Part shown: one piece after another, positions 14,271 to 62,510 of the stretch
Position numbering within the stretch: the first letter of the stretch is position 1
How the letters are laid out: every line of letters begins with the position of its first letter
Notes under the pieces: model-generated
What the model was told of the DNA's origin: nothing
What the model saw: the letters and a program-made list of their open reading frames with translations, nothing else
Database searches by the model: none
Assembly (NCBI RefSeq): GCF_016026235.1
Contig: NZ_CP065613.1
DNA: 64,000 bases
Direction: 5' to 3' (one strand)
From: Escherichia coli
Lineage (GTDB): Bacteria > Pseudomonadota > Gammaproteobacteria > Enterobacterales > Enterobacteriaceae
Position numbers and translations under genes: made by a program

Positions 14271-17200
14271 TTACACCTTTTCCACATTCACAAGGAAGGA
14301 CTTAAACTCCGGCGTCTGCGTGTTCGCATCACCAACGAATGGCGTTAACGTATTGGCAATAAAGCCTTTTTTAGCTACGCCTTCATAACCCCAGTGAATC
14401 GGAATACCGATGGTATCGATATCTTTGCCGTTCGCTTTCAGCGTGCGAATACGTTTGGTCACCACCGCTTTGGCCTTGATATAGCCACGGTTGGAGGAGA
14501 CTTTCACGGTATCGCCCTGGGCAATGCCAAGTTTATTCGCCAGCGACTCCCCGATTTCCACAAACTGCTCTGGCTGCAAAATCGCGTTCAACAGCGCGTG
14601 TTTGGTCCAGTAGTGGAAGTGCTCGGTCAGACGATAGGTGGTTCCGACATACGGGAACTTATCGGCTTTACCCAATGCTTCGGCGTCGTCTTTAAAGATA
14701 CGTGCAGCCGGGTTCGAGATAACGTTTGGATGCAGCGGGTTAGTTCCCAGCGGCGTTTCAAACGGCTCGTAGTGTTCCGGGAACGGACCTTCCGCCATCT
14801 TATCGAGGGCAAACAGACGCCCCATGCCTTCCTGCTGCATGATAAACGGCCCGACGCCGCTGCCCGGAGGCGCTGCGCTGTAGTCCGGAATATCCCAGCC
14901 GGTCCACTTAGTGCCGTCCCATTTCAGCAACTGACGCTTCGGATCCCACGGGTTACCCTGCGGATCTGCGGAGGCGCGGTTATACAGAATGCGGCGGTTA
15001 AGCGGCCATGCCCATGCCCAGCCCAGCGTGTTACCGAGGCCAGACGGATCGGCGTTATCACGACGCGCCATCTGGTTGCCTTCCGGCGTCCAGCTACCGG
15101 CGAAAATCCAGCAACCACAGGAAGTTGTACCGTCATCGCGCAGTTGGGCGAACGAGCTAAGTTGTTGGCCTTTCTTGACGATAACCGCACCGGTTGCCGG
15201 ATCGGTAATATCGGCCAGCGCCTTACCGTTACTCTCCATCGCCACTTCTTCTGAAGATGGCTCATGCGGAATGGCGTAGTTCCAGGTCATGTTCAGCACC
15301 TGGTCCGGGTTCGCGCCACCCTGTTCGGCATACATCTTGCGCAAGCGCAGGAAGATACCGGAGAGGATCTCGCCGTCAGTCAGCGCAATCCCCGGGGCGT
15401 CCGCACCTTTCCAGTGCCACTGTAACCAGCGACCTGAGTTAACGATAGAACCGTTCTCTTCCGCGAAGCAGGTCGATGGCAGACGGAACACTTCGGTCTG
15501 GATCTTCGACGAGTCAACTTCGTTCAGCTCACCGTGGTTCTGCCAGAAGTTAGAGGTTTCAGTGTTCAGCGGGTCGATGGTGACGAGGAACTTCAGTTTC
15601 GACAGACAACCGATCACTTTGTTTTTGTTCGGGAATGAGGCAACAGGGTTAAAGCCCTGGCAGATATAGCCATTGACCTTGCCCTCTTTCATCATCTCGA
15701 AGTATTGCAGGACGTCGTAGCCTTTATCCCACTTCGGCAACCAGTCAAAGCCCCAGCTATTTTCCGCCGTCGCTTTATCACCAAAGAAGGCCTTCATCAT
15801 AGAGACGAAGAATTTCGGGTAGTTGCCCCAGTAGTTTACCTGGCCTTCCAGCAGCGGTTTTGGCGTGTTGGCGGTAAGGTAGGTTTGCAGATCGGTCTGC
15901 TTCTCGCTTGGCAGCGTCATGTAACCTGGCAGGCTCTGCGACAGCAGCCCCAGGTCCGTCAGCCCCTGAATATTGGAGTGACCGCGCAGGGCGTTAACGC
16001 CGCCGCCAGCCATCCCCATGTTACCGAGCAGCAGCTGGATCATCGCCATCGTACGAATGTTTTGCGCACCAACGGAGTGTTGCGTCCAGCCGAGGGCATA
16101 CAGGAACGAGGCAGTTTTATCGTGAGCACTGGTTTCTGCGATGTATTCGCAGACTTTCAGGAACGCGTCTTTTGGCGTACCACAGATGTTTTCAACCACA
16201 TCTGGCGTGTAGCGGGAAACGTGCTGTTTCAGCAAGTTCCACACGCAGCGCGGATGTTGCAGCGTGGTATCGCGTTTGGCGAAGCCGTTTTCGTCCAGTT
16301 CATAAGTCCAGGAGGATTTATCGTACTTGCGTTTTTCCGCGTCGTAGCCGGTGAACAGGCCATCTTCAAAGCCGTAATCCTCACGCACGATCAGGCTGGC
16401 GTTGGTATAGGCTTCGGTGTATTCGCGGTTGAATTTTTCATTGTTCAGCAGGTACAGCAATACGCCTGACAGGAAAGCAATGTCAGTACCGGAACGAATA
16501 GGGGCATAGTAGTCAGCCACCGCCGCCGTACGCGTAAAGCGAGGATCGATCACAATCAGCTTCGCGCCATTGTGAATTTTGGCTTCCATCGCCCAGCGGA
16601 ACCCGACCGGGTGAGCTTCAGCGGCGTTACCGCCCATCACCACGACGAGGTTGGCGTTCTTGATGTCGACCCAGTGGTTGGTCATCGCACCGCGACCAAA
16701 TGTTGGAGCAAGACTTGCTACCGTTGGTCCGTGTCAGACACGCGCCTGGTTGTCGACCGCGAGCATACCCAGCGCGCGGGAGAATTTTTGCGTTAAATAG
16801 CCGGTTTCGTTACTCGACGCGGAAGCACACAGCATCCCGGTGGAGAGCCAGCGGTTAACAGTCACGCCTTCGGCGTTTTGCGCAATGTAGTTAGCATCGC
16901 GGTCTTCTTTCATCAGTTTGGCGATGCGATCAAACGCCTCTTCCCAACTGATTTGCTGCCATTTATCAGAACCTGGCGCACGGTATTCCGGAAACTTCAG
17001 ACGGCTTTCGGAGTGGATGAAATCCACCAGGCCAGCGCCTTTCGGACAAAGTGCACCGCGGTTGACCGGGTGATCCGGATCGCCTTCGATATGGAAGATA
17101 GATGCTTTGGCGTTTTTTGCTCCGTCACCGAGGCTGTACATCAACAGCCCACAGCCTACGGAACAATAGGTGCAGGTATTACGGGTTTCGCGGGTGCGCA

Positions 17201-27423: not shown

Positions 27424-27644
27424 CCGTAGGCCGGATAAGGCGCTCGCGCCGCATCCGGCAATCAATGCCTGATGCGACGCTGTCGCGTCTTATCAGGCCT
27501 ACAACTATTGCCGACCTGTAGGCCGGATAAGGCACTTGTGCCGCATCCGGCAATCAATGCCTGATGCGACGCTGTCGCGTCTTATCAGGCCTACAACTGT
27601 TGCCGACCTGTAGGCCGGATAAGGCGCTCGCGCCGCATCCGGCA
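27424..27644. repeat. BIME cluster (tandem REP pairs) between rhaD and rhaA
   Basis: About 100-bp unit (gtaggccggataaggcgctcgcgccgcatccggca atcaatgcctgatgcgacgctgtcgcgtcttatcaggcctac) repeated twice plus a partial third copy. Confidence 0.85.
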
Positions 27645-36424: not shown

Positions 36425-36525
36425 CCTCGGAGTGTAGGCCTGATAAGACGCTATCAGCGTCGCATCAGGCATCCTGCTCAAATGCCGGATGCGGCGTAAA
36501 CGCCTTATCCTGCCTACAAATGCGG
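36425..36525. repeat. REP/BIME elements
   Basis: taggcctgataagacgctatcagcgtcgcatcaggc ... gccggatgcggcgtaaacgccttatcctgcctac. Confidence 0.8.
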
Positions 36526-36528
36526 AGT

Positions 36529-37902
36529 TTAACTCCGCTTATACAGCGGCAACCAAATCACCAGCCGTAAACCGCCCAGCGGGCTGTCTTCTGCTTTAAC
36601 CCAGCCACGATGCTGCTGAATGGCGGTTTCAACAATCGCCAGCCCCAATCCTGTACCGCCAGATTCACGATCGCGTGCTTCATCGGTCCGATAGAACGGA
36701 CGGAAAATCTGTTCGCGATCTTCCGGGCTAACGCCAGGACCATCGTCGTCCACCGTAATGGTGATACCGTCTTTATCTACCGCAAAGCCCACTTCAATCT
36801 TCGTATGGGAATAACGCAGAGCATTACGAACAATGTTTTCCAGCGCACTTTCCAGGGCGTTCGGATTGCCGTACAGCGGCCACGGCCCAGGCGGGAAGTT
36901 AACTGTCAACGACTTGCCCATTTGCTCGGCTTCGAACGCCGCGTTATCCAGCACTTCACTCCACAACTGGTTGGCTTTGATGGTTTCGCTAACCAGCGCG
37001 TTTTTTTGCTGATTACGTGACATCACCAACAGATCGTTGATCATGCTGTCCAGACGTTGCGCTTCGGTTTCAATACGCTCCAGTTCCTTGCTTTCACCGC
37101 TACGACGGCGCAGTAACGCCGTACCCAGTTGCAGACGCGTCAGCGGGGTGCGCAGCTCGTGAGAGATATCAGAAAGCAGACGCTGCTGAGAGGTCATCAT
37201 GCGCTCCAGCGCGGTGACCATCTGGTTAAAACTGGCACCTGCGGCAAGGAATTCCTGTGGCCCCGCTTCCAGTTCCGGGTGCTGGCGTAAGTTTCCCTGG
37301 GCAACTTCATCGGCAGCGTTTTTCAGCTTACGCGCCGGTTTTGCCAGACTCCAGGCCAACCACAACAGCAGCGGCGTACTGACCAACATGGTGACAATCA
37401 GCAGTAATAGCGGGCGGTCAAACAGTAAGTTAATGAAATCGGATTGAGAACTGCTGGCCGGACGAATCAGATAAAGTTGGTAATTATCTTCGCCATCACG
37501 CACGGAGAACGGACCGACCAGTTCCACGCGGCCATACTTTTTCTTCTGCGGATGATCGGCGTTATCGGCCTGACCAATAAAGTTACGAATGATCTGCATT
37601 TCGCTGCGTTCAGCGCCGATCACGCGGCCTTCGGTGGTCACCAATAACAAACGCTGTCCTGGCGGTGCCCACTTATCAATCGCCCGGAACAGACGCCGCC
37701 ACCACATTAAATCGTTGGGCGGATCGTTCGCCAGCTCCGCTTCAACATGCTGCTCAATCATCAGCCCCTGACGCTGTTCGCTATCCAGAAGCTCGGTCAT
37801 CTGGCGTGAATCGAGCTTGGGTAACATCAAAACCAACATCAACACCAGCGCCAGCGTCAGCCAGAAGATGGCGAAGATGCGCGCGGTTAAGCTGCCTATC
37901 AT
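36529..37902 (-). CDS. cpxA: envelope-stress sensor histidine kinase
   Basis: 457-aa ORF; two TM segments; H-box HELRTPLTRL. Confidence 0.95.
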   Translation of the reverse strand: MIGSLTARIFAIFWLTLALVLMLVLMLPKLDSRQMTELLDSEQRQGLMIEQHVEAELANDPPNDLMWWRRLFRAIDKWAPPGQRLLLVTTEGRVIGAERSEMQIIRNFIGQADNADHPQKKKYGRVELVGPFSVRDGEDNYQLYLIRPASSSQSDFINLLFDRPLLLLIVTMLVSTPLLLWLAWSLAKPARKLKNAADEVAQGNLRQHPELEAGPQEFLAAGASFNQMVTALERMMTSQQRLLSDISHELRTPLTRLQLGTALLRRRSGESKELERIETEAQRLDSMINDLLVMSRNQQKNALVSETIKANQLWSEVLDNAAFEAEQMGKSLTVNFPPGPWPLYGNPNALESALENIVRNALRYSHTKIEVGFAVDKDGITITVDDDGPGVSPEDREQIFRPFYRTDEARDRESGGTGLGLAIVETAIQQHRGWVKAEDSPLGGLRLVIWLPLYKRS

Positions 37903-38597
37903 GAAGCAGAAACCATCAGGTAGCCGCGACCACGCAAGGTTTTAAACCACGGGTGACCATCTTTACGATCCGGCAGTTTACGACGCAGGTTGGAAATGTG
38001 CATATCGATAGCGCGGTCGAAAGGCGTCAGGCGTTTGCCCAGCACTTCCTGGCTTAAATGTTCACGGGAAACCACCTGACCCAGATGCTGTGCCAGCAAA
38101 TAGAGCAGGGTAAACTCAGTACCGGTTAACTCCAGCGTTTGCCCGTCGAAGCTGGCTTCCTGACGGCCTGGATTCAGCACTAAGGCATCAACTTCCAGTG
38201 TCGGTGAACCGTTGTCGTTGTTTTGCTGTTGCTCGCTCCAGTGCGAACGGCGCAGGATCGCGCGAATACGTGCCACCAGCTCACGATCATTAAACGGTTT
38301 CGGGAGATAGTCATCTGCGCCCAGCTCAAGGCCGAGAACGCGATCAAGTTCACTGCCGCGCGCCGTCAACATAATGACAGGCGTCTGGTGTGTCTGGCGA
38401 AGTGCTTTTAATGTGTCGATACCATTTTTCTTCGGCATCATTACGTCAAGCAAAAGTAAATCAATGCTGTCGTCCAGAAGATCAAGCGCCTGTTCCCCAT
38501 CGTGGGCAACAATCACGTTGAAGCCTTCCATCTCGAGCAGCTCCTTTAATAGGGAAGTCAGCTCTCGGTCATCATCAACTAACAGGATTTTATTCAT
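37899..38597 (-). CDS. cpxR: envelope-stress response regulator (OmpR family)
   Basis: 232-aa ORF; receiver domain plus winged-helix; overlaps cpxA start. Confidence 0.95.
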   Translation of the reverse strand: MNKILLVDDDRELTSLLKELLEMEGFNVIVAHDGEQALDLLDDSIDLLLLDVMMPKKNGIDTLKALRQTHQTPVIMLTARGSELDRVLGLELGADDYLPKPFNDRELVARIRAILRRSHWSEQQQNNDNGSPTLEVDALVLNPGRQEASFDGQTLELTGTEFTLLYLLAQHLGQVVSREHLSQEVLGKRLTPFDRAIDMHISNLRRKLPDRKDGHPWFKTLRGRGYLMVSAS

Positions 38598-38652
38598 TGT
38601 TTAAATACCTCCGAGGCAGAAATTACGTCATCAGACGTCGCTAATCCATGAC

Positions 38653-38667
38653 TTTACGTTGTTTTAC
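38653..38667. promoter_or_regulatory. CpxR box (GTAAA-N5-GTAAA) in the cpxP / cpxRA divergent region
   Basis: Reverse complement of tttacgttgttttac is GTAAAacaacGTAAA; a further gtaaa half-site lies near 38694-38698. Confidence 0.7.
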
Positions 38668-38746
38668 ACCCCCTGACGCATGTTTGCAGCCTGAATCGTA
38701 AACTCTCTATCGTTGAATCGCGACAGAAAGATTTTGGGAGCAAATG

Positions 38747-39247
38747 ATGCGCATAGTTACCGCTGCCGTCATGGCCTCAACGCTGGCAGTCAGTTCATTA
38801 AGCCACGCTGCTGAAGTCGGTTCAGGCGATAACTGGCATCCGGGTGAAGAACTTACGCAGCGCAGTACGCAGAGCCATATGTTCGACGGCATAAGTTTAA
38901 CCGAACATCAGCGTCAGCAGATGCGAGATCTTATGCAACAGGCCCGGCACGAACAGCCTCCTGTTAATGTTAGCGAACTGGAGACAATGCATCGCCTTGT
39001 CACCGCAGAAAATTTTGATGAAAACGCTGTGCGCGCACAGGCAGAAAAAATGGCGAATGAGCAAATTGCTCGTCAGGTTGAGATGGCAAAAGTCCGCAAC
39101 CAAATGTATCGCCTGTTAACGCCGGAGCAGCAAGCGGTTTTAAACGAGAAACATCAACAACGAATGGAGCAGTTGCGCGACGTGACGCAATGGCAAAAAA
39201 GTTCATCGTTGAAGCTATTGAGTAGTAGCAACTCACGTTCCCAGTAG
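38747..39247 (+). CDS. cpxP: periplasmic CpxA inhibitor/adaptor
   Basis: ORF 38744..39247; signal peptide; [15 protein letters not shown] motifs. Confidence 0.9.
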
Positions 39248-39254
39248 TAAACCC

Positions 39255-39314
39255 TGTTTTCCTTGCCATAGACACCATCCCTGTCTTCCCCCACATGATG
39301 TGGGGGTTTTTTTT
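39255..39314 (+). ncRNA. cpxQ: CpxQ-like sRNA derived from the cpxP 3' UTR
   Basis: About 60 nt between cpxP stop and terminator T-run, ending in hairpin cccccacatgatgtggggg plus U-run; identity from recalled literature. Confidence 0.55.
39288..39314 (+). terminator. rho-independent terminator of cpxP
   Basis: Perfect hairpin cccccacatgatgtggggg followed by T8. Confidence 0.85.
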
Positions 39315-39395
39315 ATCCTCAATTTGCCTGCTGCTTAATGCATTGCGGATGATTTGCTTCCGTTATACTAGCGTCAGTTGATAGCGGGAGTATTT

Positions 39396-40298
39396 ATGAA
39401 TCAATCTTATGGACGGCTGGTCAGTCGGGCGGCGATTGCTGCGACGGCGATGGCTTCGCTGCTATTGCTGATTAAAATTTTTGCATGGTGGTATACCGGG
39501 TCGGTGAGTATTCTCGCCGCGCTGGTGGATTCGCTGGTGGATATCGGCGCGTCGTTGACGAATTTATTGGTAGTGCGATATTCCCTGCAACCTGCCGACG
39601 ATAATCACTCGTTTGGTCACGGTAAAGCTGAGTCCCTCGCGGCGCTGGCGCAAAGTATGTTTATCTCCGGTTCGGCACTATTCCTGTTTTTGACAGGCAT
39701 TCAACATCTGATATCTCCAACACCGATGACAGATCCAGGCGTCGGGGTTATCGTGACAATTGTGGCGCTAATTTGTACGATTATCCTTGTCTCGTTTCAG
39801 CGTTGGGTGGTGCGCCGGACGCAAAGCCAGGCGGTGCGGGCTGATATGCTACATTACCAGTCTGATGTTATGATGAACGGCGCAATTCTGCTGGCGCTGG
39901 GGTTGTCCTGGTACGGCTGGCATCGCGCCGATGCTCTGTTTGCATTGGGAATCGGCATCTATATTTTATATAGCGCGTTACGCATGGGATATGAGGCGGT
40001 ACAGTCATTACTGGATCGCGCATTACCTGATGAGGAACGGCAAGAAATTATTGATATCGTGACTTCCTGGCCGGGTGTTAGCGGCGCTCACGATCTTCGC
40101 ACGCGGCAGTCAGGGCCGACCCGCTTTATTCAGATTCATTTGGAAATGGAAGACTCTCTGCCTTTGGTTCAGGCACATATGGTGGCGGATCAGGTAGAGC
40201 AGGCTATTTTACGGCGTTTTCCGGGATCGGATGTGATTATCCATCAGGACCCCTGTTCCGTCGTACCCAGGGAGGGTAAACGGTCTATGCTTTCATAA
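39396..40298 (+). CDS. fieF: cation diffusion facilitator (ferrous iron / zinc efflux)
   Basis: ORF 39378..40298; start at MNQSYGRLV; six TM segments plus cytoplasmic domain. Confidence 0.9.
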
Positions 40299-41493: not shown

Positions 41494-41600
41494 AAATGCC
41501 TGATGCGCTTCGCTTATCAGGCCTACGTGAATTCTGCAATTTATTGAATTTACAAACTTTTGTAGGCCGGATAAGGCGTTCGCGCCTCATCCGGCATCGA
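41494..41600. repeat. REP/BIME elements
   Basis: gcctgatgcgcttcgcttatcaggcctac ... taggccggataaggcgttcgcgcctcatccggc. Confidence 0.8.
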
Positions 41601-56216: not shown

Positions 56217-56747
56217 TTACGCTTTGTAGCTTAATTCTTCGATGGTGTGGAAATGGTTGGTATAGATGCAAATGTCGCCTGCAATATCCAACGCCTTTTC
56301 AGCAATTTCACGGGCGCTAAGTTCAGTGTTTTCTAACAGCGCGCGCGCCGCAGCCTGGGCGTAAGGGCCGCCGGAGCCGATAGCAATAAGATCGTTTTCT
56401 GGCTGCACCACGTCACCGTTACCGGTGATGATAAGCGATGCAGTTTCATCCGCGACTGCCAGCAGTGCTTCAAGTTTGCGCAGCATGCGATCGGTACGCC
56501 AGTCTTTTGCCAGCTCAACGGCGGCTTTAACCAGATGGCCCTGATGCATTTCCAGTTTACGTTCAAACAGTTCGAACAGCGTAAAAGCATCCGCAGTACC
56601 GCCCGCAAAGCCCGCGATGACTTTGTCGTTGTACAGACGGCGGACCTTTTTCACGTTGCCTTTCATTACGGTATTGCCCAACGTGGCCTGACCATCACCA
56701 GCGATGACCACATGGCCGTTACGGCGTACGCTTACTATAGTTGTCAC
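56217..56747 (-). CDS. hslV: ATP-dependent protease subunit HslV
   Basis: 176-aa [14 protein letters not shown]; Thr at position 2. Confidence 0.95.
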
Positions 56748-56814
56748 GAGCTGACCCCTTGGTTACGAATACAGAGTACAAACCCCGTACAAAAGTACGG
56801 GGCATAATGCAATT

Positions 56815-59071: not shown

Positions 59072-61429
<2,358 letters not shown>

Positions 61430-61433
61430 TTAG

Positions 61434-61685
<252 letters not shown>

Positions 61686-62409: not shown

Positions 62410-62510
62410 ATGCCGGATGCGGCGTGAACGCCTTATCCGGCCTACAAGTTCGTGCAAATTCAATAAATTGCAATATGACGTAGGCCTGATAAGCGTAGCG
62501 CATCAGGCGA
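62410..62510. repeat. REP/BIME elements
   Basis: gccggatgcggcgtgaacgccttatccggcctac ... taggcctgataagcgtagcgcatcaggc. Confidence 0.8.

Follow-up and report, generated by a model that had tools for sequence, protein, structure and literature searches.

Cpx control region and the cpxP-derived small RNA CpxQ at the cpxA-cpxR/cpxP-fieF locus of Escherichia coli

The divergent genes cpxR and cpxP and the short 3' UTR following cpxP raise the question whether this region combines a promoter controlled by CpxR with a regulatory RNA released from the resulting transcript, or whether the same sequences are better explained by plainer functions. The window (the whole stretch of 64,000 nucleotides that was analysed) is recognizable by its sequence as the well-studied cpxA-cpxR/cpxP-fieF envelope-stress locus of E. 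coli. On the minus strand, it contains the open reading frames of cpxA (36529-37902) and of the response regulator gene cpxR (37899..38597; 232 amino acids, collinear with K-12 b3912), which heads the divergent cpxRA operon. A control region of 149 bp separates cpxR from cpxP on the plus strand (38747..39247; K-12 b4484), whose open reading frame of 166 codons is closed by a TAG stop codon at 39245-39247 and matches cpxP-annotated sequence in E. coli genomes at 100%. The 3' UTR of cpxP starts at 39248, and fieF and pfkA are the genes located downstream of this short segment. Gene order is collinear with that of K-12 MG1655, from which the window differs by 34 substitutions in 5 kb; only three SNPs fall within the 799 bp between 38598 and 39396 when compared to the K-12 cpxA-cpxR/cpxP-cpxQ-fieF region. 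At least 80% of an 803-bp query was recovered in 5425 of 5426 complete E. coli genomes, nearly all of them at an identity of at least 99%.

The locus almost certainly represents the canonical Cpx envelope-stress output module of E. coli, which comprises a CpxR-activated cpxP promoter and the cpxP-derived RNA CpxQ, and we found no contradicting evidence among our results. This explanation builds on the observed identity and position of CpxQ, its covarying terminator and its conservation, together with the identity of the CpxR boxes and their geometry with respect to the start site. The binding of CpxR, the cleavage by RNase E, the dependence on Hfq and the repression of targets are taken from the literature or inferred. 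Since promoter and CpxQ have both already been described in E. coli K-12, the analysis does not reveal new biology and its value mainly lies in calibration, as a textbook module of CpxR boxes and a 3'-UTR sRNA was correctly recognized from the letters of the DNA.

The control region between cpxR and cpxP

The control region contains two CpxR boxes, both located on the minus strand. Box 1, GTAAAACAACGTAAA, published as 'cpxR/cpxP1', is found at 38653..38667, precisely where an earlier note on this DNA had placed a GTAAA-N5-GTAAA element in reverse orientation, and it is assigned by its exact match to this pattern, its rank in a matrix scan and its identity to the listed site. It is the sole exact match in the 64 kb, compared to an expectation of 0.11 and to 11 out of 100 shuffled sequences that contain at least one match. 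The exact pattern alone is thus only modestly improbable, and we have therefore built a position matrix from 39 known CpxR sites contained in Table S1 of PMC9600279, from which both entries of the cpxR/cpxP locus were left out. In this motif scan, which had been suggested as a check together with the claim, box 1 is the top-scoring 15-mer of the window, with 19.2 bits and rank 1 among about 128,000 positions, followed by a runner-up with 14.7 bits. Box 2, GCAAACATGCGTCAG, published as 'cpxR/cpxP2' and located at 38673..38687, had been missed in the same note, whose inventory of CpxR sites thus holds for box 1 and is incomplete with respect to the second published site. Its assignment is based on its identity to the listed sequence and on a matrix score of 8.7 bits, which is within the top 0.05% of positions in the window. 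Together, both boxes make up four pentamers in a 10-bp phase, which start at 38653, 38663, 38673 and 38683, and each of the three overlapping 15-mer registers of this block ranks among the best 0.05% of positions in the window. In a comparison of 80 enterobacterial sequences, in which the window was joined by 79 orthologous loci out of 80 that had been retrieved from enterobacterial species, box 1 is invariant in all sequences and box 2 nearly so, with the entire segment between 38648 and 38691 being invariant or close to it.

Both 15-mers agree in sequence and orientation, without any difference, with the entries 'cpxR/cpxP1' and 'cpxR/cpxP2' in Table S1 of PMC9600279, where they are listed as known CpxR-P sites and attributed to De Wulf et al. 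2002. Footprinting, EMSA and shuffling mutagenesis have validated a GTAAA-N5-GTAAA element of Yersinia pseudotuberculosis that precedes cpxR by about 55 nt; in the window, box 1 starts 56 nt 5' of the ATG of cpxR, and the sequence protected in Yersinia, GTCAG-N5-GTAAA, resembles positions 38663-38677. On the basis of these listed sites and the validated equivalent in Yersinia, boxes 1 and 2 are predicted to be bound by CpxR-P. The phosphorylated regulator would occupy the four phased pentamers of the control region, and the location of the same boxes upstream of the divergent cpxRA operon would at the same time confer autoregulation. A strongly conserved block 5' of the cpxR start codon (38604-38636, AATACCTCCGAGGCAGAAATTACGTCATCAGACG) holds the Shine-Dalgarno sequence of cpxR on the minus strand and presumably also the core promoter and leader of cpxRA.

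The transcription start site of cpxP is assigned to the G at position 38712 on the plus strand, as defined by the PcpxP part contained in the supplement of PMC9753035, which ends with ...CTCTATC, and by its PcpxP(+5) version, which adds GTTGA. This position is consistent with PMC4817254, according to which the 44 bp of native 5' sequence contain the TSS. Counted from this start, box 1 extends from -59 to -45 and box 2 from -39 to -25, which places both of them within about 100 bp 5' of the start site and causes box 2 to overlap with the -35 region of PcpxP. The sequence TAAACT at 38699-38704 (-13 to -8) is the probable -10 hexamer of the promoter. Our search for a -35 element with a spacing of 16-18 bp from TAAACT did not yield a good candidate, and a scan of positions 38400-39500 did not return a sigma-70-like site, which fits the properties of an activator-dependent promoter where box 2 covers the -35 region. 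CpxR would accordingly activate a promoter that combines a weak -35 element with the TAAACT hexamer, and the transcript, extending from 38712 to the terminator at 39314, would constitute a cpxP mRNA of 603 nt.

With three copies compared to an expectation of 0.37, GTAAA pentamers are enriched in the 149-bp intergenic region. The third of these pentamers, at 38698..38702 on the plus strand, is the further half-site mentioned in the earlier note, whose presence is borne out by the sequence, whereas its role as part of a dimeric site is not supported since a partner pentamer is absent at standard spacing (matrix scores of -1.2 and -6.1). Because of this missing partner and because the invariant bases T38699, A38700 and T38704 coincide with positions 1, 2 and 6 of the overlapping hexamer, whose pattern in the 80 sequences is TA[A/G]ACT, we read the segment as -10 element. 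It could in addition act as a genuine third contact for CpxR, a possibility which we regard as doubtful even though it draws some strength from the literature, with PMC9753035 stating, in a passage that cites Yamamoto and Ishihama 2006, that PcpxP harbors three CpxR-P sites, one of which extends to +5. Such a contact would also account for the near invariance of G38698 and of the bases GTTGA at +1 to +5, the first five to be transcribed. It is in contrast difficult to reconcile with the lack of a properly spaced partner, with the fourth base of the pentamer (38701), where 33 of the 80 sequences have an A and the other 47 a G, and with the match between the invariant T, A and T and the bases that count in a -10 hexamer located 7 nt upstream of the start.

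Identity of CpxQ and its release from the cpxP mRNA

The proposal that the 3' UTR of cpxP encodes a CpxQ-like sRNA is confirmed by its alignment to the annotated and published E. coli RNA, a comparison that had been named as a suitable check. CpxQ is located on the same strand as cpxP at 39257..39314, within the cpxP 3' UTR, and it ends at the cpxP terminator. Its 58 nt comprise a single-stranded 5' seed, a small hairpin at 39270-39286, which in our fold displays the loop CCAUCCC, and a terminator hairpin followed by eight uridines. In 57 of 58 positions, this sequence is identical to the cpxQ gene of K-12 (b4716) and to a 58-mer termed 'cpxQ' that is printed in the supplement of PMC9753035. 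The K-12 record describes cpxQ as a 58-nt ncRNA that begins 10 nt past the end of the cpxP stop codon, and mapping of this annotation defines the mature start at 39257, compared to the approximate span of 39255..39314 proposed earlier, of which the 3' end is accurate. The K-12 RNA shares its locus, strand, distance from the cpxP stop codon, length, seeds and terminator stem with the window. The sole difference concerns position 39298, the last of the three bases in the terminator loop, which is an A in the window and a C in K-12. The A allele is the consensus across genera and it is also commoner in E. coli, where 4192 records match at an identity of at least 99% compared to 1223 records at 95-99%. 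The membership in CpxQ is thus supported by each feature that can be judged at the level of sequence, including position, seeds and terminator.

The junction between cpxP and CpxQ has the sequence CCCUG|UUUU (39252..39260), where the bar marks the boundary between 39256 and the annotated 5' end of cpxQ at 39257, and the CCCTG preceding it is found in 78 of the 80 sequences. RNase E would cut between G39256 and U39257, nine nucleotides past the stop codon, to release a 58-nt, 5'-monophosphorylated CpxQ that is bound to Hfq. This mode of release follows studies demonstrating that RNase E cleaves near the cpxP stop codon, with Hfq conferring precision and protection (PMC9438474), and that CpxQ binds to and is stabilized by Hfq (PMC4817254, PMC9438474). 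The absence of a sigma-70-like promoter inside cpxP in the scan of 38400-39500 fits a generation of the RNA by processing. Although certain 3'-UTR sRNAs are expressed from internal promoters, it is extremely improbable that CpxQ is instead a primary transcript initiated from its own promoter in the 3' end of cpxP, in light of this negative scan, of the sequence immediately preceding 39257, which is coding and varies between species, and of the reported loss of CpxQ upon mutation of the RNase E site and its 5' monophosphate (PMC9438474, PMC6755755, PMC10250213).

As processed RNA, CpxQ would base-pair through its invariant single-stranded 5' end and its small hairpin loop with transcripts encoding envelope proteins, such as nhaB, skp, cfa and others, leading to their repression. 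The reported targets include nhaB, skp, cfa, agp, ydjN and fimA (PMC4817254, PMC9438474, PMC6755755, PMC10250213), with the 5' end serving as seed for nhaB and cfa (PMC6755755). A GGGAUGG located upstream of the Shine-Dalgarno sequence of skp is a perfect complement of the hairpin loop CCAUCCC. Our own duplex calculations were dropped as evidence for targeting since, in RNAduplex predictions of the single-stranded part of CpxQ with the leaders of K-12 nhaB and skp, shuffled versions of CpxQ performed as well in 68 of 500 and 164 of 500 cases, respectively. The published pairings should nevertheless carry over because the seeds in the window are identical to those of K-12. The primary paper on the biogenesis of CpxQ is that of Chao and Vogel from 2016, and seed-mutation experiments in E. 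coli and Salmonella on the repression of nhaB, skp and cfa by CpxQ have reportedly been described before.

Conservation of CpxQ and its overlap with a phage attachment core

The perfect GC-rich hairpin and U-run that the earlier note had recognized at the end of the 3' UTR are real. The Rho-independent terminator shared by cpxP and CpxQ (39288..39314), which also constitutes the 3' Hfq-binding module, contains a perfect 8-bp stem at 39288-39306 (CCCCCACA/TGTGGGGG) with six G-C pairs and the 3-nt loop UGA, followed by eight T at 39307-39314. This hairpin varies in a compensatory manner, as illustrated by the pair 39293/39301, which in 58 distinct sequences is found 32 times as A-U, 22 times as U-A and four times as C-G. 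In total, we counted 29 compensatory (double-sided) cells compared to 10.3 ± 1.9 in shuffled controls, none of 500 shuffles reaching the same value, and pairing collapses to 42-61% when the register is slid. The small hairpin at 39270-39286 does not show any variation in the 80 sequences and consequently no covariation signal. It is part of the first 31 nt of CpxQ, which are invariant in all 80 sequences. The mean identity to the window thus amounts to 1.00 for this segment and 0.98 for the entire CpxQ, compared to 0.815 for the coding sequence of cpxP, 0.69 for its third codon positions and 0.43 for the region downstream of the terminator, with the identity of the CpxP protein decreasing to 71-75% in the same set. 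As judged from this alignment, a stem that covaries while the single-stranded part beside it does not change would be the pattern expected for a base-pairing sRNA and the opposite of the one expected for a mere terminator.

The segment 39271-39317 on the plus strand, comprising nucleotides 15-58 of CpxQ and the following ATC, is over its 47 bp identical to a sequence that phage Wphi carries between its ogr and int genes and corresponds to an unoccupied attB core of Wphi-type P2-like phages. A query with CpxQ matched 62 phage records, many of them only over its 3' 44 nt. The window itself does not contain a Wphi-type integrase and its site is empty. It could thus be argued that the 3' UTR is a plain cpxP terminator, conserved for termination or as phage attachment site, and devoid of any function as regulatory RNA. 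We consider this to be hardly credible. The terminator is certainly there and the core does act in phage attachment, but the constraint is distributed in the wrong way, with the 31 nt before the hairpin being invariant in 80 of 80 sequences and the hairpin tolerating compensatory change, where a terminator would need the reverse. Moreover, the first 14 nt of CpxQ are located outside of the phage core and are equally invariant, a Wphi-type integrase directly follows CpxQ in only 6 of the 80 fetched loci, and a function as sRNA has been demonstrated by published genetics (PMC4817254, PMC9438474, PMC6755755).

The E. coli genomes contain about 670 extra copies of the CpxQ sequence, and roughly one in eight of the complete genomes appear to carry a prophage or a remnant at this site. 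In strain EM22-18-53, cpxP and full CpxQ are followed by int, a P2-family prophage and ogr, and then by the 47-bp core and fieF, with attL and attR copies bordering the prophage, and we thus conclude that integration preserves CpxQ, as the full sequence is retained in lysogens at attL and only the copy at attR is truncated. In the literature, the prophage Wphi1 of E. coli W is listed at 'cpxP-fieF' (PMC3032704), a designation that refers to the site, which is empty in the window, by its flanking genes and not by cpxQ. In our sequence comparison, this 'cpxP-fieF' integration site of Wphi-type P2-like phages is found to fall within cpxQ. Where papers in the searchable literature mention CpxQ together with attB, they refer to lambda attB used for building strains or to unrelated matters. 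Through the overlap with the integration site, CpxQ joins other sRNA genes in which phages attach, such as cyaR and ssrA.

The part of CpxQ contained in the phage core (nucleotides 15-58), which makes up the 3' three-quarters of the RNA and is present in every Wphi-type P2-like phage, includes the loop seed CCAUCCC and the Hfq-binding terminator. If read through from ogr or late genes, the phage or attR copy might yield a 5'-truncated, Hfq-binding RNA that mimics or competes with CpxQ, which we regard as a long shot. If true, it would tie lysogeny to the envelope-stress response, with relevance for lysogens rather than for the window with its empty site. The idea of a phage ogr transcript that ends in the CpxQ-derived terminator was weakened by the finding that ogr of Wphi is followed by its own terminator-like hairpin right after the stop codon. 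As a separate observation, full-length CpxQ with 100% identity is present in a few plasmid-labelled records, such as NZ_CP039131.1 (Pseudomonas sp. A2, 51 kb), which are probably mis-assigned chromosomal or prophage-junction fragments.

The Rfam family Hrs1 and other structured elements of the window

Rfam 15 does not contain a CpxQ family, and searches at gathering and at permissive thresholds did not return one on the plus strand. The best match is RF02628 (Hrs1, Hfq-regulated sRNA 1 of Erwinia amylovora), which aligns over the full length of its model to 39242-39314 on the minus strand with 44.5 bits (E = 3.7e-7). As this score is below the gathering value of 56.4 bits, CpxQ is by the Rfam criterion not a member of the family, although it is homologous. 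Whereas CpxQ is encoded on the strand of cpxP, the model matches the opposite strand, and it opens with an A-run and a hairpin, which corresponds to a terminator read backwards. When read as reverse complement, it shares CCUUGCCA and UCCCUGUCU with CpxQ. In its source paper, hrs1 of Erwinia occupies the interval between cpxP and fieF and shares the strand of these two genes, it is equipped with a terminator and detected by Northern blot, and its level falls to 14-21% in an hfq mutant. Its genomic position, Hfq dependence and terminator thus resemble those of CpxQ. Because of this position and strand between cpxP and fieF and because of the A-run at the start of the model, Hrs1 appears to be the Erwinia orthologue of CpxQ modelled on the wrong, antisense strand, an equivalence that rests on the alignment to the model and on the table of the source paper. 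A search for homologues of the CpxP protein towards Erwinia returned, among the 120 matches listed, near-identical E. coli proteins only, and Hrs1 and CpxQ are not named together in any paper of the searchable literature. PGAP does not annotate anything under the name CpxQ in E. coli genomes. Pipelines that rely on Rfam cannot annotate this RNA. The only related family is Hrs1, which is seemingly modelled on the wrong strand.

The same search has identified additional elements in other parts of the window. REP/BIME-type repeats, assigned to the Rfam families naRNA4 (CssrE) and ES036 (CssrF), are found at 36437-36514 and 41519-41560 on the minus strand and at 27429-27499, 27521-27591 and 62446-62487 on the plus strand, one of them between yiiM and cpxA and another just past pfkA. 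Further matches above the gathering threshold comprise a SECIS_3 selenocysteine insertion element at 16681-16739 on the minus strand (84 bits), which is possibly part of a formate dehydrogenase gene of the fdoG/fdhF type, the ClpQY (hslVU) promoter element at 56745-56802 on the minus strand and the leader of ribosomal protein L31 at 61414-61466 on the plus strand.
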